Origin: Candidatus Zhuqueibacterota bacterium
GTDB lineage: Bacteria; Zhuqueibacterota; Zhuqueibacteria; Thermofontimicrobiales; Thermofontimicrobiaceae
Assembly: GCA_049322915.1 (NCBI GenBank)
Contig: JBMOPW010000030.1
Span: forward strand, 1 to 64,000
Direction: 5' to 3'
Length of the DNA stretch: 64,000 nucleotides
The notes beneath the pieces are model-generated. The model was not told the origin of the DNA. It made no database searches and was given only the letters and a program-made list of their open reading frames with translations. Position numbers and translations under genes: made by a program. This document shows positions 32,267 to 62,249 of the stretch, piece after piece (position 1 is the stretch's first letter; every line of letters starts with the position of its first letter).

Positions 32267-34030
32267 ATGAAAATTGTTAAAGTTGTCACGTCCGTTTTAC
32301 TCCTATGCGCGCTGGCTACTGGCGCATTGGCTCAATCAAAGACCTACACCCCGGATCCATGGATCCAGAAATACCACCAGACCATTTCCGCGCTGAAAAA
32401 TGAAATCAATCCTGCGCTTCGTAAAACAACCGGCGCCACTGTTACTGTTGTTTTTCCGGACGCCAATCTCGAAGCCGCCGTGCGCGATGCGCTAGAGATA
32501 CCTACCGCTCCCATCACCGATGCGGATATGTTAATGCTTGCCACGTTAGTTGCGAACGATGAGAATATATCCAACCTCACAGGCCTGGAATATGCGCTCA
32601 ACTTGTCAATTCTTTCGCTTCGAGAGAACAACATTTCAGACTTATCGCCATTACAAAATCTGACTTCAATGTCTTACTTGTTTGTGGACAATAATTATGT
32701 CCTCACCAGTATTCAGCCCATTGCTAACATGCGGAATTTGCTTTATCTGGGCTTTGGCAATAATGCAATCACTGATATCAGTGTCCTGCAAAATATCAAT
32801 TATATCATCGATCTGAATCTGAATAACAACCAGATTACGGACATTTCTCCGCTGAGAAATCAGCGGCAGTTGGACGTTCTGGTTGCCGGCAACAATAATA
32901 TCGAGGATATCAGCGCCCTTGCGAACGTCAGGAGCCTGACGACATTATACCTGCAGGGCAATGAAATCAGCGATATTTCGCCCCTGGCAAATCTGACGAA
33001 TCTTTTGGATCTGTACATTCCGTCAAATCAGATTTCTGATATGAGCGCGGTGGCGAACATGACAGAATTAGTATCGCTCTCGATTCACACAAACCAGATC
33101 AGCGATCTTTCTCCGGTGGAAAACCTGACGGCATTGTCCGTGCTGGTCATTAACGACAATTCCATTTCCGACCTGTCGCCGATTCAAGGTTTGACCAATC
33201 TTTCGACGCTTTACCTCGGAAATAATAATATATCAGACGCAAGCCCCGCCTCCGGACTTGTCAACCTGACCGGGCTTAAAATGGAAGGCAACTTACTGAA
33301 CAACGACGATCTGCTCTCGTTTTACGATCTTGACGCCCTGGCCGGTCTGGACTTATCCAACAATCCGGATATTACGAGCGGGACTGCCATGCAGGCGTTG
33401 GGCGATAATCTGGACAGCATGAACTGCGAGGACATCGTATGGGATGGCCAATGCGGAATCGATCCCCCTGTCCCGGTGGAGTTATCCGCGTTCAACGCGC
33501 ACATTCAAGCTGGAAAAATCGTGCTGCAATGGGCGACTGAGTCCGAGACTAATTCATTTGGATTTGACATCGAAAAGAGTCGCGACGGTGAAACGTTCGA
33601 ACGAATCGGTTTCGTTCAGGGTCAGGGAACCACGTCGACGCCTTCACGCTACGAATTCATCGACCAGAGCGTTGTGGCTGGCGCCAATTATTACCGACTG
33701 CGTCAGGTGGATTTTGACGGGCAATTCGAATATTCCGACATCATTGACGTGGTGGTCGGCGCGCCGACCCGGTTCAAGTTGGGACAGAATTTTCCCAATC
33801 CGTTCAACTCATCCACAATGATCTCCTTCGCGCTCCCGGAACGCGCCCATGTTGAAATCACCGTGTTCGACATCACAGGCAAAACCCTGGCGGTCGTGAC
33901 AAACCAGACATTCGAAGCCGGCTCTTACAACGTTCATTTCAATGCCAGCAGCCTGCCCTCCGGCTCTTATTTTTATAAAATGGTCGCCGGCCAATATTCA
34001 TCCGTACAGAAGCTGGTTGTGTTAAAATAA
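32267..34030 (+). CDS. Secreted internalin-like leucine-rich repeat protein with C-terminal FlgD-Ig/T9SS-A-like sorting domain
   Basis: Signal peptide; FPDANLEAAVR cap; 22-aa LxxLxLxxNxIxDIxPL repeats; PVELSAF domain; QNFPNPFN...SGSYFYKM CTD. Confidence 0.9.
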   Translation: MKIVKVVTSVLLLCALATGALAQSKTYTPDPWIQKYHQTISALKNEINPALRKTTGATVTVVFPDANLEAAVRDALEIPTAPITDADMLMLATLVANDENISNLTGLEYALNLSILSLRENNISDLSPLQNLTSMSYLFVDNNYVLTSIQPIANMRNLLYLGFGNNAITDISVLQNINYIIDLNLNNNQITDISPLRNQRQLDVLVAGNNNIEDISALANVRSLTTLYLQGNEISDISPLANLTNLLDLYIPSNQISDMSAVANMTELVSLSIHTNQISDLSPVENLTALSVLVINDNSISDLSPIQGLTNLSTLYLGNNNISDASPASGLVNLTGLKMEGNLLNNDDLLSFYDLDALAGLDLSNNPDITSGTAMQALGDNLDSMNCEDIVWDGQCGIDPPVPVELSAFNAHIQAGKIVLQWATESETNSFGFDIEKSRDGETFERIGFVQGQGTTSTPSRYEFIDQSVVAGANYYRLRQVDFDGQFEYSDIIDVVVGAPTRFKLGQNFPNPFNSSTMISFALPERAHVEITVFDITGKTLAVVTNQTFEAGSYNVHFNASSLPSGSYFYKMVAGQYSSVQKLVVLK

Positions 34031-34094
34031 AAAGCATTGTCATACAGCGACGAAAAGACTTTTTAAGGCCATCTTAAAAAGTCTTTTTTTTATT
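33931..34094 (+). repeat. Direct repeat A, copy 1 (last ~32 codons of the LRR gene plus its terminator)
   Basis: Matches 46324-46591 apart from 3 substitutions, one extra T in the T run and a 103-bp insertion. Confidence 0.95.
34053..34091 (+). terminator. Intrinsic terminator
   Basis: AAAAGACTTTTTAAG / CTTAAAAAGTCTTTT stem with a T run. Confidence 0.85.
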
Positions 34095-34667
34095 GATTCG
34101 TTCGAGCCCTGCTTATAAATCGCCTGGTCAATGCCAGAAGGATTGATATTTTCGGAATGGACGACATGGTCCATGGCCATTTCTTGCACCGCATTCGCCT
34201 CATTAGAATTCTCCATTGAAGATAGCAATTGCCGCCATGGTCCGCTGGGTGTAATTCACGAATCGTGACCATTCGCAGATCCACATCGCTCTGGATCGAT
34301 ACTGCTTCCAAATAATTGAAATTGATGTGGCCACTAAATCGCTCGACGCCTCGCTGTAACATCTGAAAAATTTGAGTTGAGCCCGAAGCTCGGAATTAAT
34401 GGATCAATAGCGTCGCAAGTCGAAGTAAGCCGAACTGGCTGCGCCGACCGGATAATCTCAGGTTTTAAAATTTTTCCCAGCCTGCCAGGGCCTACTGATT
34501 CAGCCCTGATGGCAAAAAACTAGTTGCAGTTTAGAAATTAATTTATTAATTTTAAGAAATTTCCCTTACTGTCGTTTGTCCAATCTCTGACTTTTTTTTA
34601 TTTGGTTACCAGAAATCCTTTCCATGGAGCACAAGTCGTTGTATGACAGAGTTCGCTGAAACCTAAC

Positions 34668-34950
34668 ATGGAAAAAAAGACACTATTATCTCTCATTATC
34701 ACAGCTTAGAAGAACTTGGCGCTGGCGGCATAGGCATCGTTTACAAAGCCAGGGAGTTGAATCTCAATCGCATCGTGGTACTAAATTTCTTTCGCCGCAA
34801 CTCACCCATGATAACGATGCCATTGCGCGATTTTTCCAAAAAGCGGAGATCGTCTCCGGCTTTAATCGCCCCAATATTTTCATCCTTCACGGGATCGATG
34901 AGCGGTAAGGTCTTCATATCATGGTCATGGAATGTGTCAATGGTGGTCGG
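34668..34950 (+). pseudogene. Degraded Ser/Thr protein kinase N-lobe
   Basis: ISHYHSLEELGAGGIGIVYKARELNLNRIVVLNF, frameshift, then PQLTHDNDAIARFFQKAEIVSGFNRPNIFILHGIDER*...IMVMECVNG. Confidence 0.8.
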
Positions 34951-35044
34951 TGGCGGCTTGATTCCAGGGAAATATAACCCGACAGTTGAAAAAAGTGCCA
35001 AAGATGCGACCACCGGCGGAGTGATCGCAGGATATTCGGTCGTC

Positions 35045-35385
35045 ACTGTGAAGGGAAAGTTGTTTTATGGAAGTTCCATTCCCGACGATAACGGCAAAAT
35101 ACTGTTCGTCCCATTCCCGCATACTTCCGATATAACCGAAATGAATCGAGATAAACGACTGGAAATCATGGAACTGCTGTCAGCCGGCGTAGAAATATAA
35201 AAAGCAACACTGCCACTTCATGGATTCAATATCAGAATGAACCTGGGAGAGTTGCCAGGGCTGGTGTAAAAAATCACCTGCATTTTCACATCGTTCCCCG
35301 GTAGAACGCCGATACCAATTCTGTGCCGGTTTGCAGGCGTACAAAGGTAGTTTCGGAAGGACTAATGGAGACATGAGAGTCACTA
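35045..35385 (+). pseudogene. Degraded HIT family hydrolase
   Basis: NGKILFVPFPH...EIMELL, stop, HGFNIRMNLG, frameshift, RVARAGVKNHLHFHIVPR*NADTN. The HxHxH triad is retained. Confidence 0.8.
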
Positions 35386-35440
35386 AAAAAAGTTATTATA
35401 ATTTGGACAATAACGCAGTCAACAACTCTATCTGAACCCG

Positions 35441-37543
35441 GTGCTACAAAAAAAGAGCAAAATTCTCCTGTATTTTTTATGTGGGATTGCAATCCCATGC
35501 CTACTGTTAAGCTATTTTGCTTATCGCGGCATTCAAAATGACCGGGCGATTTACGAACAGCAAATGCTTCAAAAAAATCAGCAAACCGCCGGGCGAATTG
35601 TCGAAACCATTCATTCTCACTTCTGCGAAATCGAGCAACGCGCAGCCAGCTTGATCGCATCGCTGCCGAGACATCCAGATCCACCATTGCTTGATCGACT
35701 GCACTCACTGAAAAATAGCCATCCTTTAGTAGAAGATTGCTTTTTGTTTAACAGCCAGACCGATGAGATTTCTCTGCCTGTTTCCAGGTTGCTTTTCACA
35801 CACGACAATAAAATGGAGAATGCTAATCCCCAAAGAGATATTGCCGTTTTACCGGGATTTGCTCAGGGATTGCAAAGTGAATTTCAAAAGCATGATTTTG
35901 GTCAAGCAGTAAAATCTTATCAAGCTGCTTTCTCGGATGCTAAAAATAAAAGCATAAAAGGCGAAATATTAAATGCGATTGCACGGACACAAAAAAAAGC
36001 TGGCAATTTTTCAGATGCGATTGAATCTTACCAAAATCTATTGGAGGAATTCGGCGAGGTTGTCAGCTCGAATGGAATTCCTCTGAAATTAGCTGCGCAA
36101 ATTGAATTGGGCTTTATCTACCGAACTTTGAAAGATACGCTGAAATCTTTCCAGCACTATTTGACTGCCTACCATGATTTGTTCCAGGGAACGTGTTTGC
36201 TGGAACAATCTCGTTATGAATTCTGGAGTCACACCTTAAATGACTCGCTGCACAAAATTTTTCAGGACGAAAACTCATCATTTCATTTCGTCTTCTCCGA
36301 CAGCTTCAAAACCATTCAGGATGAAGAATCTCAGCAAAAAAAAATTACCAGGCGATTATTAAAATTTCAAGCTGAAGCTGGCAATCTGATTTCGAAAAAA
36401 TTGTTGTCACGACCCGGAAGCGATTTTTTTCGATTTGGCGTCAGTCTGGATGATCAACAATATTTCGTTTCAATGATTGGTCCAATGCCAAAAGAATCCA
36501 CAGATTTCTTGGGCATCCTTTGGAGAAGAAATTTGATTCAGGATTCACTTTTACATTTTTTAATGAATGAGCATCTGCCAGATGACCACATTTCCTGGAA
36601 AGTCACTGACGATGAGAACTGTGTTATTTTGCAGTCAGAAAACTATGCTGCAGAAAACACTCGTTTGTTAGTGACGGCTTCGTTTGTTGATAATTTTCCG
36701 AACTGGACTTTAGCACTGTTTCGTCAAAATCCGAATCTGATCGAAGACCTTTTAGCTTCACGACGCAGCTTTTATTTTTATGTTTTCTTGCTCATCGCCG
36801 GCATCCTTGTCTTCGGGCTAATATTAACGATCCGCAGTGTCTCGCACGAGCTGGAATTTGTGAAACTGAAATCCGATTTCGTTTCCAGCGTCTCCCATGA
36901 ACTGAAAAGCCCGCTGACCTCAATTCGTCAGCTAGCTGAAATGCTCCAGACGGGCAGGGTGCCGACGGAGGAGCGTCGTCAAAAATATTATGACGTCATT
37001 GTGGAACAGAGCAAACGACTTGCTCTGATGATCAGCAATGTCCTGGATTTTGCGAAGATGGAGGATGGAAAAAAACAATTTGAATTTGAATCAACCGATA
37101 TGGAGCCATTTTTGCGTGAAGCGATTGCGGAAATCCAACAGCAGGTGAGTCACCAGGAATTTACGATAACTGTAAATATAGCGAAAACGTTGCCGACTAT
37201 CGCCATTGATCGTAATGCCATTTCACAGGCAATTACCAATTTATTTGATAATGCGATTAAATATTCAGATCTAATTAAAACAGTAAATGTAGATTCATTT
37301 CTAAAAGATGGGTATCTGCACATCAGCATTCAGGATTTTGGCGCTGGAATCAGTCAGGAAGAAATGGCAAAAATATTTGATCGTTTCTATCGCGGGAACA
37401 CTGAATTTATTCGAAGTAGAAAAGGGAGTGGGCTTGGTCTCACACTCGTGAAACAAATTATCCAGGCGCATCATGGCACAATCGAAATTGCCAGTGAGCC
37501 AGGAAGAGGGAGCACGTTCACCATCAAAATACCAGCTCATTGA
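35441..37543 (+). CDS. Sensor histidine kinase with TPR-containing extracytoplasmic domain
   Basis: Two TM segments, TPR-like helices, SHELKSPL, DNAIKYS, DFGAGI, GSGLGL. Confidence 0.9.
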   Translation: MLQKKSKILLYFLCGIAIPCLLLSYFAYRGIQNDRAIYEQQMLQKNQQTAGRIVETIHSHFCEIEQRAASLIASLPRHPDPPLLDRLHSLKNSHPLVEDCFLFNSQTDEISLPVSRLLFTHDNKMENANPQRDIAVLPGFAQGLQSEFQKHDFGQAVKSYQAAFSDAKNKSIKGEILNAIARTQKKAGNFSDAIESYQNLLEEFGEVVSSNGIPLKLAAQIELGFIYRTLKDTLKSFQHYLTAYHDLFQGTCLLEQSRYEFWSHTLNDSLHKIFQDENSSFHFVFSDSFKTIQDEESQQKKITRRLLKFQAEAGNLISKKLLSRPGSDFFRFGVSLDDQQYFVSMIGPMPKESTDFLGILWRRNLIQDSLLHFLMNEHLPDDHISWKVTDDENCVILQSENYAAENTRLLVTASFVDNFPNWTLALFRQNPNLIEDLLASRRSFYFYVFLLIAGILVFGLILTIRSVSHELEFVKLKSDFVSSVSHELKSPLTSIRQLAEMLQTGRVPTEERRQKYYDVIVEQSKRLALMISNVLDFAKMEDGKKQFEFESTDMEPFLREAIAEIQQQVSHQEFTITVNIAKTLPTIAIDRNAISQAITNLFDNAIKYSDLIKTVNVDSFLKDGYLHISIQDFGAGISQEEMAKIFDRFYRGNTEFIRSRKGSGLGLTLVKQIIQAHHGTIEIASEPGRGSTFTIKIPAH

Positions 37544-37746
37544 TTTTAGAATAACGAATTTAAATTTGAGATTCTATTTTGGAAAAATCGTTTTGGGATT
37601 GCACTCTTGAATCGTAAATATATAACTGGTAGGATATGCTTGTGAGGACTTAATTTTTCAGAGTGTAAAAAAATGGATATGCTGATTCCATCACTCGGAT
37701 TAACGGAATCAGCATAAAATTTTAACCCTGAATTGGGATTATAGTG

Positions 37747-38433: not shown

Positions 38434-38482
38434 CTTGATCAGCCTAAAACCTGAACTCCAAACTGTAATGGATTCACTTCTT

Positions 38483-40387: not shown

Positions 40388-40511
40388 TGATTTTAGATTT
40401 CAGAATGTAGAAATAAACCATCTTTCTGTCTCCAAGCTTAAGATTTGGAAACCATGTCCTTCCTGCGCCACGCCCCGCGCTACAAGCCCATCGCTCCCTG
40501 TTTGCTATTTT

Positions 40512-40551
40512 CTTCACACAATCTTAACAGACACTTTGCAATCCCTTCACT
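40512..40551 (+). promoter_or_regulatory. Four-unit PhoB/OmpR-type box array
   Basis: CTTCACA, CTTAACA, CTTTGCA and CTTCACT at an exact 11-bp period (40512, 40523, 40534, 40545), then TATATT at about 40573. Confidence 0.7.
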
Positions 40552-40772
40552 CAACTCCTTTTCCAATTGATTATATTGGTGACGATTAAATCAGTACTTA
40601 TCGCCATCCATAAAAAAACAAGCATGGCCAAAATTAATTTTGTTTTGGTGATGTTCGAACAATTACCAACCACATCCTTAGGCAAATTTTAATCATCCCT
40701 TCATCAGGAGAGTATCGATTAACATCTCTTGAAACAACTCTTTTCATTCAATTTTTTTTAGGAGGATTCGCT

Positions 40773-46323: not shown

Positions 46324-46591
46324 CGTTCATTTCAATGCCAGCAGCCTGCCCTCCGGCTCTTATTTTTATAAAATGGTCGCCGGCCAATATTCATCCGTGC
46401 AGAAGCTGGTTGTGTTAACCCTATTACGTCGCATAGATTTAGTATCGTTATATACTGTATTTTGGATAGATGAAAATTCAACATATTGTGATAAATTTGC
46501 TAAATGACGTTGTAGGGTTAAAATAAAAACCATTGTCATATAGCGACGAAAAGACTTTTTAAGGCCATCTTAAAAAGTCTTTTTTTTTATT
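46324..46591 (+). repeat. Direct repeat A, copy 2 (orphan CTD tail plus terminator), interrupted by a MITE
   Basis: Near-identical to 33931-34094. Confidence 0.95.
46419..46517. mobile_element. 99-bp MITE with TTAA target-site duplication
   Basis: TTAA-CCCTATTACGTC...GACGTTGTAGGG-TTAA (terminal inverted repeat 10/12). The empty site is visible in repeat copy 1 (GTGTTAAAATAA). Confidence 0.88.
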
Positions 46592-47938: not shown

Positions 47939-50900
47939 ATGAAAAAAATAGCCCTCATCGTCATTCTTCTCTTTCAGATCACCTCCACGAACGACAGCCA
48001 TGCCCAGATTACCGATCTGTATCTTGAATATGTGTCGTCAAAGTTCCCTACCCTCAGCGGGTCAGCTCACATCATTCAGGATCGGTATGGATTTATGTGG
48101 TTTGGATCGAGGAGCGGCCTTCAAAAATTCGACGGTTACCAGGTGGTTGTGTATCGGCATAATCCGGCAGATTCGCTCTCGCTATCGAGCAACTTCATTA
48201 CGGCAATGGTCGAGGATCCGCACGAAGGGCTGTGGATTGGAACGGTGAGCGGTTTGAACAGACTGGATGTGGCGAGCGGGAAATTTCAACGCTTCCATCA
48301 CGATCCCGGCAATCCGAACAGCCTCAGCCATGATTACATCACCTGCCTGCGCTTCGACGAAACAGGGATTTTATGGATTGGCACGCAACAGGGCGGCTTG
48401 AACGAAATGAGAATTTGGGATCGAAATAATTTTGACAGCGTCTCAGTCAGTCGTCACACCCACCGTCCCGAAGATTCTTTCAGCGTGAGCGACAATTATA
48501 TCCGCTTCATTCTCGATGATACGCGGCACGACGATCACCTTCTCTGGATCGGCACTGCCAATGGACTGAACCGCTTTGATAAAAAAACCCGAACCTTCAC
48601 CCGGTATTTTCATGATCCAGGCGATTCCACCAGCCTGGCCAGCAACGATCTCTATTCCATCCATCAGGACGAACAGGGCGATTTGTGGATCGGCGCCTGC
48701 GAAGGCTGGCTCACCCAATTGCATCGGACGAGCGACGGCAAATTCCGGTTTCGACATGACCGGTTGGGCGAAGTCCAGAAAATTTATTCAATCACCAGAG
48801 ACAAGTATGATAACCTCTGGCTTTCGACCATGCACCACGGTCTGTATCGGTTCAACAAATCAACCCGGCGCATCGAGCATATTGAAGGCGATAAATTCCA
48901 GCATATCGATGTTAGCTATCCATACACAACATGTTTCGATCACACGGGCGCATTATGGATTGGGACATGGCCTCACCTGCTGAAACACGATCCCAACAGG
49001 AAACAATTCCGAACCGTGGCCATCGATCCACCCCTCAATATATGGAGCATGGCCATCGCTTCAATTGCCGAGGATGATCACAACTCTCTGTGGATTGCCA
49101 CCACATACCGGGGCATCCTGAAATTCAATCTCCATCGCGGCGAATTGAGCGACTTCGCTCCGGACTCTTCCAGCCAACGGTATCTTTCATCTCGCTTTGC
49201 GACGTCCATTCTCAAAGATCATACCGGCGCATTCTGGGTTTCAACATTTCGCGGCCTGAACCGATACGATCCGGGACGGGACCGATTCGTGAGCTATTTT
49301 TGGGATGCGGACAGGCCGGACAACCCGGACAATCTGCTCAGCAATTACCTGTACTGCCTGCACGAAGACCACCAGGGCGCTATCTGGATCGGCTCTTCAC
49401 GAGGCGTAAGTCGATTGGATCAAAACCGGCGCCAGTTCCGCCATTACCTGAATCGCCCCGAACAAATCAATGCCATCGGTCATTATATCGGCGCTATTCA
49501 CCAGGATCGCGCCGGCATTTTCTGGATCGGCGGGAAAGGATTGTTTCAACTCAATCCGGAAACCGGGCAGTTCAGTCGTTATTTTGCCAATCCGAACGAC
49601 TCATCCGGCGCCATCACCGCCATGGTATTCGATATCGTCGAGGATTCCCGGGGATTCCTCTGGGTCGCCACTCAGAATGGACTATATCGCCTCCACCCGA
49701 ATCAACCGACTATCCATTTCACCGAGAAAAACGGTCTGCCCAATCGCTACGTGACCGGCATTCTTGAGGATGATCAGGGCATTCTCTGGATCAGCACCAG
49801 GACGTGGTTGACCCGATACGATCCGGACACGCAACAGTTCCAATGGTTCGATTTTAGGAATGAATTTTACGAGCAAAGCCGTTTCAAAGGCAAAGACGGC
49901 GCGCTTTATTTCGGAATGGCAAAGGCGTTGCTCTCGTTTCATCCGAACGCGATACGGGATAATCCGCACAAGCCGCCGGTGTGGATATCCAACTTTCGCG
50001 TGTTCGACAAGCCAGTCACCTTTGACCGCCCTATTCCGGCGCTCAAAGAAATCCGCCTGTCCTACCGGGAGAATTTTTTCACGCTGGACTTCGTCGCGCT
50101 GAATTACACAGAGAGCGGGAATAATCAGTACAAATACCAGCTCGTCGGCGTGGATCCGGAGTGGGTGTCCTGCGGGGATCGCCGCTCTGCGAGCTATACC
50201 AACGTTCCCCCCGGCAGCTACGAGTTCAACGTGCAGGCATCGAACAATGACGGGGTCTGGAACGAGACCGGCGCGTCGGTACGCATTTTCATCTCTCCGC
50301 CCTGGTGGCAGAGCGACATTGCCTATGCCTGTTTCGTTTTCCTCGTATTGGCCGCCATGTACGGTCTGCGCCAATTTGAACTGCGGCGCTCCCAAACCCG
50401 AAACGAATTGAAGATGCGGCGCTTCGAATCCCAGAAGCTCCAGGAGGTCGACCGCATGAAATCCCGCTTCTTCGCCAACATCTCGCACGAGTTTCGCACA
50501 CCGCTCACGTTAATTTTAGGCCCGCTGAACAACCTCCTGGTCCGAACCAAAAACCAGAGACTGCACCGGGAATTGACTATCATGCAGCGCAACGCCAGGC
50601 GGTTGCAGCGATTGATCAATCAGTTGCTGGATTTATCCAAAATCGAAGCCGGCAAAATGAAGCTCCAGGCCAGACAGGAGGACCTCTCCGCCCTCGTCTT
50701 CCGAATTGTCCAGTCATTCGAGTCCCAGGCGAAATTGAAAGAGATCGAACTGACCTGTTTCTCTGATCCTGCGGGCATTCTGGTCTTTGTGGATCAGGAG
50801 AAAATCGAGAATATTTTCTACAACCTGCTGTCCAATGCCATTAAATTCACACCCCACGGCGGTAAAGTGCACGTCCGAATGAGCCTCTCCCCGACCAGCG

Positions 50901-52081
50901 CCGGCGATGGCGCGGATGCGCCCGGGAAAATGCCCGGCCTGGATTACGTCAGGATCACCGTCGAAGATACCGGCATCGGTATTCCGCGGCAGCATCTGGA
51001 GAAAATCTTCGACCGCTTCTATCAGGTGACCGGGAAGGACGACAGCCGTCAGGGCGAAACCTGCACTCACGAGCACGAAGGCACCGACATTGGCCTGTCG
51101 CTCACCAAAGAACTGGTGGAACTGCATCACGGCTTCATTCAGGTCAGCAGCGCCATACACGTCGGAACCACGTTCACCATTTTCCTGCCAATGGGCCAGT
51201 CTCATTTGACGCAGGAAGAACTTCGTCCAGGAGAAAGTCCCCACGAAGCGCCGCTGGAACAAGGCGCGGAAATTCTGGAGAGCCAGCCGGCGTCGGTTGA
51301 CTCGCTCGATGCATCTCCTCGAAAAAAATTACCCATCATATTAATCGTCGAGGACAATGCCGATCTGCGGGTATATTTACGGGATTGCCTACGCGGCAAG
51401 TATCGCATAATGGAAGCCATCGATGGCGAGCAGGGGCTGAGCTGCGCCGTCGAGAGGATTCCGGATTTGATTGTCAGCGATGTGATGATGCCCCGAATGG
51501 ACGGATTCGAGTTGTGCCGGCGGGTGAAATCCGACGAGCGAACCAGCCATATCCCATTTCTGCTGCTCACCGCCCGGGCGTCCTCTGAAAGTAAAATCAT
51601 GGGGTTGGAATTGGGAGCGGACGATTATCTCATCAAGCCGTTCGAAATGGCAGAACTGCAAACCCGCGTGAAAAATCTGATCGAACAGCGCCGGCAGTTG
51701 CGGGAGAAATTCAGCCGCAACATCTTTTTGCAGCCGAGCGAAATCGCCGTCACGTCGTACGACCAGCAATTCTTGCAGCATGTCATGAACCTGATCGAGC
51801 AAAACATCACCAGGCCCGAGTTTAATGTCACCGCTCTGACGCAATTGGTCGGCATGAGTCGTATGCAACTGCACCGTAAAATCCACGCCCTGACCAACCT
51901 CACCACGTCCGCATTCATCCGCTCCCTGCGCCTGAAACGCGCTGCGGATTTGCTGCGCCAGCGCGCCGACAATATCTCCCAGGTCGCCTACGATGTGGGA
52001 TTCAATAATCCATCGTATTTTGCGGAATGCTTCAGACAACAATTCGGCGTGCTGCCGTCGGAATACAAAATCGAATCATGA
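47939..52081 (+). CDS. Hybrid two-component sensor/regulator (Reg_prop propellers, Y_Y_Y, HisKA, HATPase, REC, AraC HTH)
   Basis: EDxxGxLWIGT repeats; YTNVPPGSYEF; SHEFRTPL; SDVMMP; VAYDVGFNNPSYF. Confidence 0.93.
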   Translation: MKKIALIVILLFQITSTNDSHAQITDLYLEYVSSKFPTLSGSAHIIQDRYGFMWFGSRSGLQKFDGYQVVVYRHNPADSLSLSSNFITAMVEDPHEGLWIGTVSGLNRLDVASGKFQRFHHDPGNPNSLSHDYITCLRFDETGILWIGTQQGGLNEMRIWDRNNFDSVSVSRHTHRPEDSFSVSDNYIRFILDDTRHDDHLLWIGTANGLNRFDKKTRTFTRYFHDPGDSTSLASNDLYSIHQDEQGDLWIGACEGWLTQLHRTSDGKFRFRHDRLGEVQKIYSITRDKYDNLWLSTMHHGLYRFNKSTRRIEHIEGDKFQHIDVSYPYTTCFDHTGALWIGTWPHLLKHDPNRKQFRTVAIDPPLNIWSMAIASIAEDDHNSLWIATTYRGILKFNLHRGELSDFAPDSSSQRYLSSRFATSILKDHTGAFWVSTFRGLNRYDPGRDRFVSYFWDADRPDNPDNLLSNYLYCLHEDHQGAIWIGSSRGVSRLDQNRRQFRHYLNRPEQINAIGHYIGAIHQDRAGIFWIGGKGLFQLNPETGQFSRYFANPNDSSGAITAMVFDIVEDSRGFLWVATQNGLYRLHPNQPTIHFTEKNGLPNRYVTGILEDDQGILWISTRTWLTRYDPDTQQFQWFDFRNEFYEQSRFKGKDGALYFGMAKALLSFHPNAIRDNPHKPPVWISNFRVFDKPVTFDRPIPALKEIRLSYRENFFTLDFVALNYTESGNNQYKYQLVGVDPEWVSCGDRRSASYTNVPPGSYEFNVQASNNDGVWNETGASVRIFISPPWWQSDIAYACFVFLVLAAMYGLRQFELRRSQTRNELKMRRFESQKLQEVDRMKSRFFANISHEFRTPLTLILGPLNNLLVRTKNQRLHRELTIMQRNARRLQRLINQLLDLSKIEAGKMKLQARQEDLSALVFRIVQSFESQAKLKEIELTCFSDPAGILVFVDQEKIENIFYNLLSNAIKFTPHGGKVHVRMSLSPTSAGDGADAPGKMPGLDYVRITVEDTGIGIPRQHLEKIFDRFYQVTGKDDSRQGETCTHEHEGTDIGLSLTKELVELHHGFIQVSSAIHVGTTFTIFLPMGQSHLTQEELRPGESPHEAPLEQGAEILESQPASVDSLDASPRKKLPIILIVEDNADLRVYLRDCLRGKYRIMEAIDGEQGLSCAVERIPDLIVSDVMMPRMDGFELCRRVKSDERTSHIPFLLLTARASSESKIMGLELGADDYLIKPFEMAELQTRVKNLIEQRRQLREKFSRNIFLQPSEIAVTSYDQQFLQHVMNLIEQNITRPEFNVTALTQLVGMSRMQLHRKIHALTNLTTSAFIRSLRLKRAADLLRQRADNISQVAYDVGFNNPSYFAECFRQQFGVLPSEYKIES
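51984..52065 (+). repeat. Direct repeat B, copy 1 (3' end of the hybrid kinase AraC domain)
   Basis: 78/82 identical to 52596-52677. Confidence 0.95.
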
Positions 52082-52102
52082 TAAAGTTGTTTGAATTATA
52101 TC

Positions 52103-52131
52103 TTGACTTTAAAATGAAAATGGCCTATATT
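52103..52131 (+). promoter_or_regulatory. Putative sigma70 promoter of hicBA
   Basis: TTGACT-N17-TATATT. Confidence 0.65.
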
Positions 52132-52159
52132 TTTAATGACTTTGATTTCAGGAGAAACG

Positions 52160-52387
52160 ATGATGCAAGAAGAATTAACTGCTGTATTTCAAAAATCACC
52201 CTATGGTTTTATTGGTTACGTACAGGAACTTCCTGGCGCCAATAGCCAGGGGAAAACTCTGGAAGAAACAAAAAAGAATCTGATTGAAGCGATACATCTG
52301 GTGCTGGACGCGAATCGGCTGCTTGCCGAAGAAGAACTTTCCGGGCGGGAGCATTTAAAAGAAGCATTGGGAACGATTACGGTTTGA
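52160..52387 (+). CDS. hicB: HicB family antitoxin (short, no DNA-binding domain)
   Basis: GFIGYVQELPGANSQGKTLEET..NL.EAI.LVL.ANR; AGGAG RBS. Confidence 0.88.
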   Translation: MMQEELTAVFQKSPYGFIGYVQELPGANSQGKTLEETKKNLIEAIHLVLDANRLLAEEELSGREHLKEALGTITV

Positions 52388-52620
52388 AGCGCAGCGATTT
52401 AATCCGATATATTGAATCCTATGGATGCGAATTCCTGCGTGAAGGTGGAAATCATACGGTTTATGTGAACCGGGCTGATAAAAAGGTTTCTACTATTCCT
52501 CGACATCGTGAAATTGATAATAATCTATTTCTAAAGATATGCAAGGATCTTGGCATTCCCGGCCATAAAAGTTGGCGCCAGGAGGATCGACCCAATCGCC
52601 TGCGATGTGGAATTCAATAA
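52384..52620 (+). CDS. hicA: HicA family mRNA interferase toxin
   Basis: MKRSDLIR...GC..LREGGNHTVY.N...STIPRHREI...ICKDLGIP. The start overlaps the hicB stop. Confidence 0.88.
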   Translation: MKRSDLIRYIESYGCEFLREGGNHTVYVNRADKKVSTIPRHREIDNNLFLKICKDLGIPGHKSWRQEDRPNRLRCGIQ

Positions 52621-52677
52621 TCCATCCTATTTTGCGGAATGCTTCAGACAACAGTTCGGCGTGCTGCCGTCGGAATA
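52596..52677 (+). repeat. Direct repeat B, copy 2 (orphan AraC tail)
   Basis: Reads ACDVEFNNPSYFAECFRQQFGVLPSEY, then IAREN*. Confidence 0.95.
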
Positions 52678-52795
52678 TATTGCCAGAGAGAATTGAGCCG
52701 CTGCCCCTGAAAATAACGCTTGCCTTTTGTCCTGCGGATTCTTATTTTTACCACGCTAACGGACACTTTTTCCAAAATGACATTTTTGATCAAAT

Positions 52796-56335: not shown

Positions 56336-56493
56336 AAATCTCAAAATCCAAAAACTAAAAATCAAACAATATTAGAATCAGAAGTTCTCAAATTCAAAAC
56401 GAAAACACTCACCAATGTAGCTCCCTGCATTTGAGATTTGAAATTTTGTTTTTGATTATTATTTGTGATTTGGATTTTGAGATTTGGGATTTT
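56336..56493. repeat. Heptamer-built inverted-repeat element in a 5' UTR
   Basis: Perfect 17-bp inverted repeat AAATCTCAAAATCCAAA (56336) / TTTGGATTTTGAGATTT (56469-56485), with degenerate 7-mer units inside. Confidence 0.75.
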
Positions 56494-56545
56494 ACAGCCT
56501 ATAACACAACAGAATCAACACAAACCAATCAAATGGAGGTGTACC

Positions 56546-59500
56546 ATGTCCCGATCTATTTTACTATTCGGTTTAATTCTATTCATGTTTGGGGCAGTAA
56601 CAGCCGGGACCATCAAAGTCCCCGGCGACCAGCCCACCATTCAGGCCGGCATTAACGCCGCCACCAACGGCGATACCGTGCTGGTCGCGGATGGCACCTA
56701 TTTCGAGAACATCAACTTCAAAGGCAAGGCCATCACCGTCGCCAGCTATTTTTTTGTCGATAACGACACGACGCACATCAACAACACCATCATCGATGGC
56801 AGCCAGCCCAGCCACGCGGACACTGGCTCGGTTGTATTATTCATTTCCGGAGAGGATACCACTTCAATACTTTATGGATTTACCATTACCAATGGAAGCG
56901 GTTCTGTAATTGCTGAACGCAGGCGAGGCGGAGGAATTTGCATTTTTAACTCTGGCGCAACAATTGTGCATAACAAGGTTATTGCTAACTCCATAACCCA
57001 TAATCAGGAATGCCACGGTGGAGGTATTGCCGCCACTTGCGATACGACTTTCGGTAGAATCTTTGTTCAAATTATCGGGAATACCATAACCCATAATCAG
57101 GCCATATCATCCCAATCCCTTTACGGTGGGTTTGGCGGCGGTGTCGATATTGCTGTTAGCAATGTTCTTCTGACGAGTAATGTAATCAGCCATAATAAGG
57201 TGAGCGCTGGGGATTATTGTTACTGTTATGGGGCCGGAGTGAGAATTGAGGGTTCTACAGAAATCAGCCTAGTGACGGATAATATCATATCGTTCAATAC
57301 ACCAATAAATGGGCAGTGTTATGGTGGAGGACTGCTAGCTGGTAGTAATGATCTAACCATCAAAGGAAATTTATTTGAGGGAAATAACAGCGAGGAGGGA
57401 GGTGGGATATTCTATAACTCTACCGGAGGCGTTATTTCCCATAACACATTTGTTAATAACCATTCCTATGCTGGAGGTGGTATTAAAGTTAACAGTTCAG
57501 AAGAAGGCGACATTTTTGGCAACAAATTTATTGGTAATACGACCGATGGTCGTGGAGGAGGCATTTGCATATCCTTCTGTTCTCCTCATATCTATAACAA
57601 CATTATCGCCCAAAATAGAACCTCCGGTTTCGGGGGAGGTATTTATATAGGTGAATACTTCTGCGGCCCTCAGATTATCAATAACATCATTGTGGATAAC
57701 ACTGCAAACACTGGCGGAGGTATCTATACAGAATTGTCCTGGCCAATAGTGATGAATACAATTTTGTGGGGAAACGTTGCCGCAACTGATCCGCAGATTT
57801 ATATTTGTGATAATGATAGGGACTTTCCAAAAACTCAAGTAGTCTATTCCGATATTCAGGGCGGCTGGGCAGGCACAGGGAACATCAATACCGATCCGTT
57901 ATTTGCCGATACTCTGTTTCATCTCTCCGATGCCAGCCCCTGCATTGGCGCGGGCGCCAGTTCCTTCACCTTTACCGGTGGGATCATTTGCCAGGCGCCG
58001 GTGACTGACTTTGCCGGACAGACTCGGCCTGACCCGACTGGCAGCAAGCCGGACATTGGCGCATTCGAAGTCCCGCGCGCGGCGCCGGAACGCCCGACGC
58101 TTTGCGAAGTCCCTACCGATTACGCTACTATTCAGGCGGGAATTGAAGCTTCCACCACCGGCGATACGGTTTTGGTATGCGAGGGCACGTACTACGAAAA
58201 TATCAACTTCAGAGGCAAGGCCATTGCCGTCGCCAGCCTGTTCATTATGGAAGGCGACACTAACCACATTAACAATACAACCATTAACGGCAGCCGACCC
58301 AGCGATCCGAACAAAGGCTCGGTGGTGAGTTTTGTTACCGGGGAGGATACGACCTCGGTGATTTGCGGGTTTACGATTACAGGCGGGACGGGTACTATGT
58401 TTGATGCGACCTATCGCGTAGGCGGAGGAATTTATTGTAAAACTTCCGGCGCCCGCATTTCCCATAATAAAATAGTCAGTAACACAATAAATCATACTGC
58501 AGATTGTGATGGCGGCGGAGTTGGCTATTGGCCGCATATAAACTCAAGTGCGCGTTTTGTTATCATTGAAGACAATGTGGTAGAATCAAATTCAATCACT
58601 TCATCGAATGGAGAAAGCTATCTGAATGGCGGTGGAATTCATATTGTTAAAGGAAGAGTGACCGGAAACACCATCCGATATAACTCGGTTGGCGGGCAGC
58701 CAATTTTTGCCGGAGGTGGCGGAATTTCTGCAACCTGTGAAAATAATGCCAATAGAACAACGGTTGTAATTACTGGAAACACGATCACCCACAATCGAGC
58801 GACAACACCTGGTTATTATGGCGGTTGGGGAGCAGGCATCGATGTTGTTATGTGTCATGTTCAGATATTGGACAACATCATTACTCATAATGAGGCAGGG
58901 GGAGACTATGGGATGGGAGCCGGGATCAGATTATGGGGATCAAAAGCAATCAGCATTATTAAAAACAATACCATTTCATTTAACTCTGTGACTGCGCCTG
59001 GAGCTGGCGGCGGAATTGAATTAGACCAGACCCAGGGTGTTCAGGTTATTGGAAACTGGATTGAATCTAACAACGGCTCTTTAGGAGGAGGCGGCATCGA
59101 CGAGAGCCGCTGTCCGACAGGAAATATCATGGATGGAAATTTCATTAAAGACAATTTGGGCGGAGAGCAGGGCGGTGGAATCTGGGCCATGAATGCTAAA
59201 CTCGTCAACAACGTCATTGTCGAAAACGAGGCGCGTCGGGGTGGTGGAATTTTTTACTATTTCAATCCTACGTTGACTTCGTCAGTGACGCAAATAATTA
59301 ACAATACCATAACTAAAAATGTAGCGGATACAGCCGGCGGCATTGCCATATACAATGCAAATGCAGTTGTGATGAACACCATCTGCTGGGGCAATACGGC
59401 GCCGCATGGCCAGGAAATTGAAGTGTGGGGAGGTTCCCTGAATGCTGCCCATTCAGATATTCAACTCGGCGCGGCCGGCATAGTGATCGATTCCCCCGCC

Positions 59501-60043
59501 ACAGTTAATTGGGCAGTAGGCAATATTGACGCAAATCCTCTCTTTGCCGATTCGACATTAACCCTTTCAAACGGGAGTCCTTGCATCGGCAAGGGTGTTG
59601 CATCTTTCGACTTTGGTGGTTTCACCTGCACCTGCCCCGAAACCGACAAGACAGGCGAAATTCGCCCCAATCCGGCAGACAGCAAACCGGACATGGGCGC
59701 CTACGAATCGCCGCTATCCACCGATGTGGAAAATCCATGGAAGACTGAAATTCCGCAGTCATATCTATTGGGTCAGAACTACCCCAATCCGTTCAACCCA
59801 ACGACAACCATAAGCTACCAGCTTCCGACGATCAGCCAGGTTGATTTGAGTATCTACAATATGATTGGTCAAAAAGTGGCCACTCTGGTATCAGCAAGAC
59901 AACCGGCCGGATTTTACAATGTACATTGGGATGCCAGCGCAGTAGCCAGCGGGGTGTATCTGTATCGGCTTGAAGCCGGGGATACTTCGACAGGCTCTGG
60001 ACAAGGTTTTGTGCAGGTGAAGAAATTGATTTTGATGCGGTGA
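56546..60043 (+). CDS. Secreted tandem right-handed beta-helix protein with CTD
   Basis: Two VP.D..TIQAGI...GTY.ENINF.GKAI modules, GGGI and I..N repeats, SPCIG.G...PD.GA.E ends, QNYPNPFNPTT CTD. GGAGG RBS before ATG 56546. Confidence 0.9.
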   Translation: MSRSILLFGLILFMFGAVTAGTIKVPGDQPTIQAGINAATNGDTVLVADGTYFENINFKGKAITVASYFFVDNDTTHINNTIIDGSQPSHADTGSVVLFISGEDTTSILYGFTITNGSGSVIAERRRGGGICIFNSGATIVHNKVIANSITHNQECHGGGIAATCDTTFGRIFVQIIGNTITHNQAISSQSLYGGFGGGVDIAVSNVLLTSNVISHNKVSAGDYCYCYGAGVRIEGSTEISLVTDNIISFNTPINGQCYGGGLLAGSNDLTIKGNLFEGNNSEEGGGIFYNSTGGVISHNTFVNNHSYAGGGIKVNSSEEGDIFGNKFIGNTTDGRGGGICISFCSPHIYNNIIAQNRTSGFGGGIYIGEYFCGPQIINNIIVDNTANTGGGIYTELSWPIVMNTILWGNVAATDPQIYICDNDRDFPKTQVVYSDIQGGWAGTGNINTDPLFADTLFHLSDASPCIGAGASSFTFTGGIICQAPVTDFAGQTRPDPTGSKPDIGAFEVPRAAPERPTLCEVPTDYATIQAGIEASTTGDTVLVCEGTYYENINFRGKAIAVASLFIMEGDTNHINNTTINGSRPSDPNKGSVVSFVTGEDTTSVICGFTITGGTGTMFDATYRVGGGIYCKTSGARISHNKIVSNTINHTADCDGGGVGYWPHINSSARFVIIEDNVVESNSITSSNGESYLNGGGIHIVKGRVTGNTIRYNSVGGQPIFAGGGGISATCENNANRTTVVITGNTITHNRATTPGYYGGWGAGIDVVMCHVQILDNIITHNEAGGDYGMGAGIRLWGSKAISIIKNNTISFNSVTAPGAGGGIELDQTQGVQVIGNWIESNNGSLGGGGIDESRCPTGNIMDGNFIKDNLGGEQGGGIWAMNAKLVNNVIVENEARRGGGIFYYFNPTLTSSVTQIINNTITKNVADTAGGIAIYNANAVVMNTICWGNTAPHGQEIEVWGGSLNAAHSDIQLGAAGIVIDSPATVNWAVGNIDANPLFADSTLTLSNGSPCIGKGVASFDFGGFTCTCPETDKTGEIRPNPADSKPDMGAYESPLSTDVENPWKTEIPQSYLLGQNYPNPFNPTTTISYQLPTISQVDLSIYNMIGQKVATLVSARQPAGFYNVHWDASAVASGVYLYRLEAGDTSTGSGQGFVQVKKLILMR

Positions 60044-60284
60044 GCGAAGTGCGTGTACGACACGTTCACCCCATCGGAGTTAATTGAGCCTCAGACGTAT
60101 TTTTCAACCTTCGTAGCCAGAGGTAAAAAATCTCCTCAAACCTAATTACCGTATTCAACCCGGAGAAGGTAATAAGGTTAATTTGAAATAGAATTCATGA
60201 GATAGGAAGGTTAACAGCAACTAAAATTAGGTCTTCATCCTCTGGCGCATTTTGAACATTGGCAGATTTTAAAAATGCGAAGCA

Positions 60285-60428
60285 GTAGCCATGCTGGATG
60301 AGCAACAACGATCGGCTGAAATTCACCAATTGAATTGGGATGCCAGCGGATTGGCGAGCGGGGTGTATTTGTATCGGCTTGAAGCCGGGGATGATGGACA
60401 CAACAAGAAGCTTAATTTAATACAATAG
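60285..60428 (+). pseudogene. Orphan CTD tail
   Basis: VAMLDEQQRSAEIHQLNWDASGLASGVYLYRLEAGDDGHNKKLNLIQ*. 60334-60392 is 54/59 identical to 59925-59983. Confidence 0.8.
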
Positions 60429-60676: not shown

Positions 60677-60728
60677 TATCTACCCTTTCAACGGTTGCGA
60701 GCATTTGAAAAGGTAGATGTTTTTATTT
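60677..60728 (+). terminator. Intrinsic terminator in the leader of the nitronate monooxygenase gene
   Basis: TATCTACCCTTTCAA / TTGAAAAGGTAGATG stem followed by TTTTTATTT. Confidence 0.75.
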
Positions 60729-60786
60729 CAACGTAACGGCATCGACTAAAAAGTCATGATCATGAAACCCTTTGTTGGAGATAAAA

Positions 60787-61878
60787 ATGACAATACCCAA
60801 GCTGAAAATTGGGAATTACACCGCAGATATACCTATCGTCCAGGGCGGAATGGGTGTAAGAGTTTCTCTCTCATCCTTAGCCGCAGCCGTCGCAAATGAA
60901 GGTGGAATTGGGACTCTTTCCAGCATCGCCCTCGGTGGTGTAAATGCTTCGGGAAAAGAGTATGAAAAAATCTCACGTGAGCTACTCAAAGAAGAAATTC
61001 GGCGGGCGAAAAGCCTGACTTCTGGACATCTCGCGGTAAATGTCATGAATGTTCTCAGCAATGCATCTGACTTGGTAAAAACATCAGTGCAGGAAGGAAT
61101 CAAATTTATTGTCATGGGCGCCGGATTGCCAATGAAGCTGCCAAGTATCGTTGAGGATAAAAATATTAATCTGATTCCCATCGTTAGTTCGGCGAGGGCT
61201 GCCAGCCTGATTTTGCGTACCTGGGACAACCGTTTTAACCGAATTCCCAGTGCATTTATTCTGGAGGGACCATTAGCTGGCGGACACCTTGGATTTTCCA
61301 GTGATCAACTGGAACACATCGAAGAATATTCGCTCGAGATACTACTTCCCTCTGTTCTGCAAGCTGTTAAGCTGTATGAGGATAAATATGGCGCTAAAAT
61401 ACCCATCATTGTTGGCGGCGGTATTTATGATGGAAATGATATTGCCCGGATGCTGTCCCTGGGTGCATCGGGAGTACAAATGGGAACCCGATTTGTCTGT
61501 ACCGAAGAAAGCAGTGTATCGGCGGCTTTCAAGCAAGCGTACATCAATGCTAAAGAAGAAGATATTGTCATTGTTAAAAGTCCGGTTGGATTATTGGGTC
61601 GTGCGATACGAAATCGATTTTTGAAAAACCTGGAAAGTGGTGAAAAAATAAAGATAAAATGTCGTTACAAATGTCTGAGTGCCTGTCAAGTCGTAAATGC
61701 AAAATACTGCATAGCCAAGGCATTGTTTAATTCGTATATAGGCGATGTTGATAACGGTTTGATTTTTTGCGGAAAGAATGCCTTTCGAATTGACAAAATA
61801 ACAACAGTGAAAGAACTTTTTAAAGAGCTTATCGATGATCTCAGCAACGCTCTTGGCCCTGAATTGAAGCCAGCTTAA
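60787..61878 (+). CDS. Nitronate monooxygenase / FabK-like FMN oxidoreductase
   Basis: PIVQGGMGV, GAGLP, EGPLAGGHLG, GASGVQMGTRF, SPVGLLGRA, GLIFCG. GGAG RBS before ATG 60787. Confidence 0.9.
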   Translation: MTIPKLKIGNYTADIPIVQGGMGVRVSLSSLAAAVANEGGIGTLSSIALGGVNASGKEYEKISRELLKEEIRRAKSLTSGHLAVNVMNVLSNASDLVKTSVQEGIKFIVMGAGLPMKLPSIVEDKNINLIPIVSSARAASLILRTWDNRFNRIPSAFILEGPLAGGHLGFSSDQLEHIEEYSLEILLPSVLQAVKLYEDKYGAKIPIIVGGGIYDGNDIARMLSLGASGVQMGTRFVCTEESSVSAAFKQAYINAKEEDIVIVKSPVGLLGRAIRNRFLKNLESGEKIKIKCRYKCLSACQVVNAKYCIAKALFNSYIGDVDNGLIFCGKNAFRIDKITTVKELFKELIDDLSNALGPELKPA

Positions 61879-61955
61879 ATTATGGTAAGAGAGCAATCGC
61901 TTTCTCTGAACTCATTTGAGATTTTTAATTTTACGGGCATTGATGGAGGAGATAC

Positions 61956-62249
61956 ATGACGAAGCCCATTGTCCGAATTGATCGCTTCAGCGAAACGATC
62001 TGCAACCGCAATGCTGATGAAAACTATCCGGATCCTTTTTCTCCGCCTGGCGATAGAGTGGCCACGCTGCTTCCTGGACACTGTCTGGCTGGAATTCACC
62101 GAATCAAATTGGGATGCCCTGGAACTGGCGAGCGGGGTGTATCTGAATCAACTGGAATCAGGGGAACCCATCGACAAGCTCCCCGAATAAGTCGGGACAG
62201 GCAGGACAAGGTTTTGTACAAGTGAAAAAAACTGATTTTAATGCGGTAA
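61956..62249 (+). pseudogene. Degenerate orphan CTD
   Basis: NYPDPFSP...RVATL, frameshift, WDALELASGVYLNQLESG...GQGFVQVKK, frameshift, LILMR*. The tail mirrors 59925-60043. Confidence 0.75.

Follow-up and report, generated by a model that had tools for sequence, protein, structure and literature searches.

Organization of the locus

We analysed a stretch of 64,000 nucleotides (nt) from a Candidatus Zhuqueibacterota bacterium, referred to here as the window, which corresponds to positions 1-64000 of contig C30 (JBMOPW010000030.1) in a metagenome bin of 6.25 Mb and 45 contigs (genome G000; 96% complete, GC content 48.8%). The window holds three cases, named A, B and C, in which the 3' end of a gene is repeated downstream as an orphan tail in the company of other genes, here called the cargo. 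In case A the tail of a leucine-rich repeat (LRR) protein gene lies around a kinase/BNR cargo, in case B the tail of an AraC-type regulator gene lies around the toxin-antitoxin pair hicBA, and in case C a sorting-domain tail lies around a nitronate monooxygenase gene. The coordinates of all these features are collected in Table 1.

The 37 non-overlapping open reading frames (ORFs) of at least 100 amino acids (aa) in the window, together with small intergenic ORFs, were profiled by Pfam, and the upstream genes of A, B and C, which we call the targets, were all found to be intact. The three duplicated tails had been proposed in a sequence-only reading of the same DNA, and self-comparison confirmed them at the same positions with a similarity far above chance, the repeat pairs A and B each being unique at the nucleotide level within the genome. 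That reading had also described in every case an intact upstream gene and an orphan after the cargo; the first part of this description was borne out, whereas in case C the first orphan (60284-60428) precedes the monooxygenase gene.

Table 1. Features of the three duplicated-tail cases, in window coordinates
Feature	Position	Strand	Evidence
LRR protein gene with C-terminal type IX secretion system (T9SS) sorting domain, intact (target of case A)	32267..34030	+	Pfam LRR_4 2.7e-36, Por_Secre_tail 1.2e-12
Repeat A, copy 1: last 32 codons of the LRR gene and intrinsic terminator (stem 34052-34088)	33931..34094	+	self-comparison
Pseudogene debris at the left end of cargo A: kinase-like, EF-G domain IV and HIT fragments	34095..35440	.	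Pfam EFG_IV; tblastn with G001 EF-G and HIT
Cargo A: TPR histidine kinase	35441-37543	+	Pfam; 88% nt identity to G011:C496
Cargo A: OmpR-type regulator	37744-38433	+	Pfam
Cargo A: TPR/PD40 protein	38357-40387	+	Pfam
Cargo A: 1811-aa BNR protein with its own sorting domain	40773-46208	+	Pfam
Repeat A, copy 2: orphan tail 46324-46418, miniature inverted-repeat transposable element (MITE) 46419-46517, terminator part 46518-46591 (stem 46548-46584)	46324..46591	+	self-comparison
Hybrid sensor kinase/receiver/AraC regulator, 1380 aa, intact (target of case B)	47939..52081	+	Pfam
Repeat B, copy 1	51984-52065 (weaker homology from 51963)	+	self-comparison
Cargo B: promoter-like region, hicB (52136-52387) and hicA (52384-52620)	52082..52565	+	Pfam HicA_toxin 2.5e-10
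Repeat B, copy 2: orphan AraC tail, closed by an in-frame stop of its own at 52694-52696	52575..52696	+	self-comparison
Gene of 1192-aa secreted protein with sorting domain, intact (target of case C)	56465..60043	+	Pfam Por_Secre_tail 8.1e-8
Orphan C2: C-terminal half of sorting domain, to TAG stop	60284..60428	+	own-genome sorting-domain profile, six-frame search, E 2.5e-7
Cargo C: nitronate monooxygenase gene	60772..61878	+	Pfam NMO 9.3e-58
Orphan C3: whole sorting domain, from the NYP(D/N)PF motif to the stop, decayed by internal deletion and premature stop	62020..62249	+	sequence inspection, alignments
LVIVD-repeat protein gene, continuing past the window end	62498..64000	+	Pfam LVIVD 2.6e-93

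The last 127 nt of contig C30 are the start of contig C35, and this overlap between contig ends indicates a short-read assembly. The arrangement was compared with the Logan contigs (a k=31 assembly) of the likely source run as an independent check. All four junctions of case A were present in these contigs, including the passage from the end of the cargo into the orphan tail (record 34062-46353), and the depth was even across the left side, the cargo and the right side (62.9, 59.7 and 69.2 respectively). On this contig evidence the duplicated-tail arrangement of case A is taken as real, and the possibility of an assembly chimera, raised in the sequence-only reading, recedes for that case.

The duplicated tails and their cargo

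In case A, positions 33931-34025 match 46324-46418 over 95 nt (99% identity, E 5e-43) and positions 34021-34094 match 46517-46591 over 75 nt (96%), the terminator with its 17-bp stem being kept in both copies. The extra length of the second copy is due only to the insertion of the MITE, an element of 99 nt whose terminal inverted repeats are imperfect and 12 nt long (CCCTATTACGTC / GACGTTGTAGGG) and which duplicated its TTAA target: TTAA flanks it at 46415-46418 and 46518-46521, and the first copy holds the unfilled TTAA at 34022-34025. About 35 more copies of this MITE, at least 85% identical, occur in the genome, some of them in tandem (C14:1008765-1009078).

The debris at the left end of cargo A includes remains of EF-G domain IV (about 34946-35107) and of a HIT gene (35081-35391), the latter being nearest to a contig from a genome of another genus (G011:C496; 83% nucleotide identity). 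It also holds a protein-kinase N-lobe piece and a frameshifted minus-strand ORF that abuts the terminator. Positions 35103-36757, which comprise the broken HIT gene and the start of the TPR histidine kinase gene, are 83-88% identical in nucleotides to G011:C496, on which AMP-ligase, EF-G, HIT and kinase genes are all intact and adjoining. The EF-G gene of that contig is only 74-76% identical to the intact EF-G gene of G000, which is found on contig C45 accompanied by HIT and by the same genes as come after these two in the same-genus genome G001. Since the identity of the kinase block exceeds that of the housekeeping EF-G gene, the block probably arrived recently from a G011-like lineage, and the redundant EF-G and HIT copies appear to have come along with it and to have decayed since (34946-35391). 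The first three genes of cargo A have a GC content of 41-44% (kinase 41.3%), compared with 41.4% for G011:C496 and 48.8% for the genome.

In case B, positions 51984-52065 and 52596-52677 match over 82 nt (95%, E 6e-31), and the match extends to 103 nt at 86%. The GC content of hicBA is 39.4%, against 53.3% and 56.3% for the neighbouring genes, and HicA relatives with 64-85% identity were found in Sumerlaeota, Firmicutes, Chloroflexota, Planctomycetota, cyanobacteria and others. A HicA of 61 aa with the ending ..DLGI(P/S)KP is encoded at 55 of 80 related loci. The homology of the window HicA to other HicA proteins ends near 52560; its native last codons and stop have been lost, and the frame reads through 18-19 codons into the orphan tail, so that the junction is ragged and shows no cassette boundary. 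The in-gene copy of the regulator tail ends in LPSEYKIES and those of its nearest homologues in ..KMK, ..KVEQY and ..KVQEL; the orphan tail ends in ..SEYIAREN and carries a G-to-E change in the conserved VGF motif. The AraC tail has no further nucleotide-level copy in the genome, and a protein search with the regulator C-terminus returned nothing above 75% identity and no empty-site allele.

For case C the tail together with its 3' flank (59730-60191) was used as the reference copy. Positions 59875-59983 are 79% identical to 60284-60392, with a core of 59 nt at 91.5%, and positions 59866-60041 are 65% identical to 62048-62247. A fourth copy is provided by the sorting domain and flank that close the LVIVD gene (contig position 64347-64806). 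Decay of the tail copies grows with distance from the gene. The same tail end and flank that follow the gene ending at 60043 also occur in a 385-bp unit, which starts in the last 24 nt of the LVIVD gene and is repeated 2.4 times in tandem at about 90% identity, with no cargo (C30:64618-65540, L040).

Six of 13 family genomes, the same-genus one not among them, were found to have an orthologue of the monooxygenase gene, and in five of these six relatives a kinase/regulator pair adjoins the gene. In G000 the orthologues of this pair are located at C16:269066-270437, and the monooxygenase gene appears to have been relocated away from its family-typical neighbours. A non-coding gap of 690 nt (C16:268375-269062) lies upstream of the pair, at the position that the monooxygenase gene has in relatives.

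To the extent that these data allow a judgement, the segments enclosed by the repeats are inserted or foreign in cases A and B and relocated in case C. The identity to G011:C496, the GC content, the relocation of the monooxygenase gene and the spread of HicA relatives thus agree with what the sequence-only reading had supposed. The three cases also differ in age, in keeping with its suggestion of repeated events over time.

Recurrence in the genome and in another phylum

In a self-comparison of the whole genome, direct pairs of low copy number were kept if they measured 50-600 nt, had at least 85% identity and lay 0.1-40 kb apart. A pair was classed as tail-orphan when one of its copies formed the 3' end of a long ORF while the other was an orphan. 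Nine such pairs were found, with one head-orphan pair and four internal-orphan pairs. Two diversity-generating retroelements account for three of the nine, as their template/variable repeats, and the other six are the three window cases, a Fic gene, a DEAD-box helicase gene and an insert on contig C21, so that the search for orphan tails proposed in the sequence-only reading revealed a recurrence beyond the window.

The Fic gene (31.3% GC) follows a PorP-like gene (56.8% GC), of which 60 nt are repeated with differing stops, TAG and TGA. The helicase gene follows a TolC-like gene, of which 69 nt are repeated; the alignment of this pair has 97% identity for 75 nt and then falls to about 68% for 37 nt, the stop staying in register. 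On C21, a minus-strand gene of 289 aa has 130 nt of its 3' end repeated at 85% identity 765 nt downstream (C21:77009-78030), and the 765-nt insert contains a 207-aa ORF without Pfam annotation. A seventh case, of the tail-tail class, was found at recQ, where 530 nt of the gene end are repeated at 97% identity around a 21-kb island (C4:140247-162500; L036, L037). The GC content of this island is 40.6%, against 53.3% in its flank, and it encodes STAND NTPases, a CHAT protein, a sigma factor and many genes of unknown function; no integrase was detected in it by Pfam. The orphan recQ tail is fused to a transposase-like HTH. Three of the seven sites lie within 30 kb, which has a chance of about 0.002 under random placement and marks this stretch of the window as a hotspot.

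The same geometry was found around a related hicBA pair in Candidatus Scalindua sp. (JABHIW010000103.1, L079:2177-4260). There an intact carbamoyltransferase gene is followed directly by hicBA, and a 56-nt copy of the end of the carbamoyltransferase gene (95% identity), stop included, lies 19 nt past hicA. The two stop codons differ (TAA and TGA), and the distance from repeat to hicB is unequal in L079 and in the window. Among the 60 HicA loci with enough flank, 8 showed a tight flanking direct repeat of at least 40 nt, as compared with 0 of 53 and 1 of 57 in shifted controls (Fisher p about 0.001). These eight are of mixed nature: L140 is a tandem array, at least three hold repeated structured elements between small genes (L108, L127, L145), and a copy of a target tail is clear only at L079 and possible at L118, with L135 and L149 unassigned to a class. 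L108 and L102 have one element in common, and the L127 element is multi-copy.

Comparison with mobile-element classes

The sequence-only reading had noted the absence of an integrase, and the searches agreed with it. No integrase, transposase, relaxase or reverse transcriptase was detected by Pfam among the window ORFs. The whole genome encodes two tyrosine recombinases (Phage_integrase; C20 and C45; 310 and 340 aa) and one serine recombinase (Resolvase; C2), and a genome-wide profile search placed none of them near any tail-duplication case. The repeats range from 60 to 530 nt, differ in sequence at every site and have unrelated boundaries; they contain no common attachment (att) core and no shared end motif, and the cargo boundaries are ragged. 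An integrase-dependent element was discarded on these grounds, with no recombinase near, no shared core and a variable repeat length.

Insertion by a transposon or insertion sequence was likewise rejected, given the lack of a transposase, the lack of terminal inverted repeats at the cargo and duplications as long as 60-530 nt. No inverted repeats bound the cargo, and the only inverted pair in 30000-64000 (56336-56485) is unrelated to the cargo ends. The MITE within the orphan tail of case A, with its inverted ends and TTAA duplication, does have the features of a transposon.

A diversity-generating retroelement was excluded from the distribution of mismatches. In the window, mismatches at adenines of the orphan amount to 0/1 and 0/2 in A, 1/4 in B and 6/21 in C2, compared with 13/13, 15/15 and 15/15 in the retroelements of the same genome, which served as controls, and neither RVT_1 nor bAvd was detected by Pfam in the window. 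The first of these retroelements (C16:7981-10856, L039) comprises a target with FGE-sulfatase fold, bAvd and a reverse transcriptase, all 13 mismatches falling at template adenines. The second (C14:573575-579556, L035) has two NACHT/FGE-sulfatase targets and one template copy (577126-577262), with 15/15 for each target; no reverse transcriptase was present among the ORFs scanned there.

With regard to integron cassettes, the orphan tail of case B begins directly at the truncated hicA end, which leaves no room for an attC site. Some hicBA relatives (L102, L108 of Brocadia, L127 and L145) are found among small same-strand ORFs between structured repeats of about 90-130 nt with inverted ends, and these arrays are possibly of the integron cassette type.

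Origin of the duplicated tails

We read the two tail copies as different alleles rather than as an evenly aged fresh duplicate, because of the endings in case B, the differing stops in the Fic and Scalindua cases, and the helicase pair with its 97% and then 68% identity. On this basis the duplicated tails may be the scars of homology-anchored recombination that displaced the resident tail, and not attachment sites, a reading to which we give about an even chance of being correct. Most likely, ordinary homologous and illegitimate recombination with DNA of related strains would suffice, and no new kind of mobile element would be needed. The homology-driven process put forward in the sequence-only reading is plausible, but its other suggestion, a trans-acting or dedicated system, finds no support in repeats that are unlike each other, lack an end motif and have ragged ends.

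In such a process, DNA from a related strain would bear the same gene with different downstream genes. On the left side the incoming DNA would recombine through homology in the 3' region of the gene, and on the right side it would be joined by an illegitimate event, or it would enter as a circle by a single crossover. The incoming tail would complete the gene and the resident tail would be displaced downstream, where it would decay as an orphan; successive rounds would build the array seen in case C. The donor haplotypes are presumed, and the route may have been either of two: one-ended recombination with an illegitimate far joint and a single crossover of a circle with one homologous segment would both give this product. 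The bias toward tails might reflect the retention of events that leave the upstream gene whole, and addictive toxin-antitoxin cargo might persist for being hard to lose.

Several observations weigh against recombination with related-strain DNA. No empty-site, donor or recipient haplotype was found in all the searches made, and the empty sites to which the sequence-only reading had looked in relatives did not appear. A DNA search of a comparison panel of 41 relatives (given by G-numbers) returned no collinear genome at the case loci. The same-genus G001 is collinear only to window position 31950 and then continues with symporter, AMP-ligase, EF-G and HIT genes; the LRR orthologues of G008 and G013 (54-56% aa identity) have different neighbours, an ABC gene follows the BNR orthologue fragment in G005, and SpoU orthologues in four genomes do not share neighbours. 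Metagenome scans yielded no relatives with the 307-aa flank gene as protein query and no matches to the exact 40 nt of the A tail. No joint skipping from 33931 to 46324 was listed in the Logan contigs, and the 12.1-kb skips that were listed were dismissed as not meaningful, having sides of 22-23 nt at the conserved sorting-domain motif. Short, low-depth contigs of run X2, a cave sample, belong to a related strain (93-98% identity); they cover the LRR gene, the regulator, the right flank and the BNR gene in its 3' half, and leave positions 38337-43672 uncovered, which is no evidence of an empty site.

The ultimate sources of the cargo also count against this reading. Neither G011:C496 nor the monooxygenase loci of relatives have the tail beside the cargo, and at least two steps would therefore be required, an illegitimate arrival followed by spread from strain to strain. 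The cargo-free 385-bp tandem shows that tails can duplicate alone, and the copies of A are 96-99% identical, for which a purely internal duplication would be possible. ComEC and DprA are present in the genome; these proteins occur in most bacteria, and their presence is no proof of competence. Finally, one-ended recombination is rare and mostly yields deletions, according to two papers (PMC3240628, PMC5361080).

The strongest competitor to displacement by recombination, although we consider it unlikely, is a de novo long target duplication, in which the insertion itself copies 40-500 nt of the target, for instance through a template switch at a stalled fork, or when a staggered break is repaired with captured DNA, with no need of a homologous donor allele. 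It would account for sources that lack the tail beside the cargo, for the near identity of the A copies and for the same geometry with unrelated cargo at unrelated genes, and the enrichment of tight flanking repeats at hicBA of other phyla (8/60 vs 0/53 and 1/57) points in the same direction. Yet several of those repeats are structured elements and not target copies (L108/L102, L127). Moreover, the in-gene ending of case B, which resembles those of the orthologues, would have to be chance cargo sequence, and the helicase and Fic repeats, although homologous up to their 3' ends, are much more diverged there than elsewhere.

We find it more doubtful still that the orphans are remnants of lost or decayed tandem paralogues, or of gene-end tandem duplications, with later unrelated insertions between the copies. 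The LVIVD-end unit repeated 2.4 times without cargo, the whole decayed sorting domain of C3 and the clusters of tandem paralogues with common tails on C14, C26 and C44 would all be expected from such a history. However, the 103-nt duplication of case B would first have put the gene out of frame, the cargo occupies exactly the space between the copies in case B, the Fic case and L079, and its composition is foreign. No trace of a gene body was found upstream of the A or B orphans, and tail-orphan pairs outnumber head-orphan pairs by nine to one.

Site-specific elements whose recombinase is lost or acts in trans, either att-flanked or integron cassettes at secondary sites, appear improbable. Integrative elements do regenerate the 3' ends of their target genes, and some hicBA relatives lie in small-gene arrays between structured repeats (L102, L108, L145). 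Nevertheless, the window has no recombinase and the three of the whole genome are not near the cases, each case has its own repeat of 60-530 nt with no common core, and the junction of case B cuts into hicA.

An assembly artefact, with strain variants of the metagenome threaded serially through a shared repeat, is very improbable: despite the short-read metagenome bin, the 127-nt overlap of contig ends and a run of 74 identical nt common to the A copies, the independent k=31 contigs hold every A junction at an even depth of 60-69 (contigs only), the copies are separated by single-nucleotide differences and by the MITE, and the same architecture is found in unrelated public genomes.

Sorting-domain tails in the genome

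Sorting domains were surveyed with a profile built from the genome's own domains, by which 222 genes end in a sorting domain. Two genes were counted as a tail pair when their last 243 nt matched over 100 nt or more with an identity of 85% or higher. Sixteen gene pairs qualified; in 15 of them the partners are neighbours no more than 30 kb apart, and in some their bodies are unrelated. One such cluster, on C44, includes an FG-GAP protein, a C25 peptidase and a beta-helix protein, whose bodies are about 17-52% identical (by forced alignment) and whose tails are 90-96% identical. Tail sharing between neighbours was observed at C44:172201-185471 (L062), C14:385800-392429 and C26:170124-184244, with 90-99% identity in DNA, while the gene bodies are unrelated or much more divergent. 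A six-frame search showed orphan pieces of sorting domains to be rare, with three found, two of them within the window. A limited literature search found no published description of this sharing of sorting-domain tails.

From these comparisons sorting-domain tails appear to be recombination-active modules. The proposal of the sequence-only reading that conserved multi-copy modules serve as landing pads holds to this extent, the high-identity pairs being nearly all neighbours, but not as a special role of multi-copy sequences, since the AraC tail has no other copy and further cases occurred at PorP-like, TolC-like and RecQ genes. A word of at least 20 nt is shared with a distant gene by 145 of the 222 sorting-domain genes, nearly always at the NYPNPF motif, which could provide a dispersed anchor. 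The repeats in A and C2 begin elsewhere, and this speaks against the motif as their own anchor.

Two further observations concern sorting-domain genes. A C25 (gingipain-like) peptidase at C44:174212-179548 (L062) appears split: its propeptide is a separate 235-aa ORF, and between the propeptide and the catalytic part lie a 452-aa BNR gene, which has a sorting domain of its own, and an ORF of 124 aa. In addition, sorting-domain matches lie near the start of long frames at C1:90886-91158 (642 codons) and C2:112951-113202 (553 codons), which may be read-through or fusion products.

A broader idea can be offered tentatively, and we are inclined to doubt it: gene 3' ends, above all the T9SS tails of sorting domain plus terminator, might be reusable modules for the recombinase-free insertion-duplication of cassettes, notably toxin-antitoxin pairs, in several phyla, with spare tails allowing new reading frames to become secreted proteins. 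If so, the 90-96% identical sorting domains on unrelated C44 neighbours would be explained by the fusion of new frames to spare tails, and the process, a parallel to polymorphic-toxin displacement with C-terminal anchors involved, would build and shuffle loci for secreted proteins.

If the displacement of resident tails by recombination is correct, orphan gene tails would offer a cheap, sequence-only marker of gene gain driven by recombination without mobile-element machinery. Such a marker would be of note in a lineage (KSB1/Zhuqueibacterota, judging by homologue names) with almost no integrases, and could be used to date and count these events in metagenome bins. The sharing of sorting-domain tails between neighbours may matter more, as it bears on the evolution of large repertoires of secreted proteins.

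Comparison with known systems

In att-flanked integrative islands the cargo lies at a gene 3' end, which is regenerated, and the insert is bordered by direct repeats; such islands have a defined att core and require a cognate integrase. The cases described here, in contrast, show no integrase, no common core, a variable repeat length and ragged cargo ends. Diversity-generating retroelements resemble them in having an orphan near-copy close to the 3' end of a gene, but the mismatches observed here are not confined to adenines and no reverse transcriptase accompanies them.

A likeness is also offered by Campbell-type insertion-duplication, where an insert lies between direct copies of a homologous end and no site-specific recombinase takes part. 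During E. coli conjugation, circles that carried one homologous end were integrated by single crossover and produced duplications of 109-950 bp (PMC3240628), a range that brackets most of the repeats of 60-530 nt found here. That case concerned an engineered plasmid under laboratory selection, whereas no circular intermediate or plasmid was seen here.

Finally, the duplicated tails were compared with the Rhs, CdiA and type VI secretion system (T6SS) arrays. For T6SS effector-immunity arrays and Rhs orphans, displacement by one-ended homologous and illegitimate recombination has been proposed (PMC5361080). As in these arrays, an intact gene is followed here by displaced 3' pieces in the same orientation and homologous to it, the incoming segment is acquired and its orphan appears to be of a different allele, no integrase takes part, and successive events would lead to arrays. 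In Rhs/CdiA/T6SS, however, what is displaced is a polymorphic toxin tip with its immunity gene, and the conserved anchor is situated upstream of that variable part. Here no displaced variable toxin tip with an immunity gene was found; the tails are conserved and not polymorphic, the conserved tail itself is duplicated nearly unchanged with unrelated cargo placed after the gene, and the genes involved are not toxins (LRR protein, sensor regulator, secreted proteins, PorP-like, TolC-like, RecQ). By analogy, the duplicated tails would work like the C-terminal displacement of Rhs/CdiA/T6SS, yet they are not members of that family.

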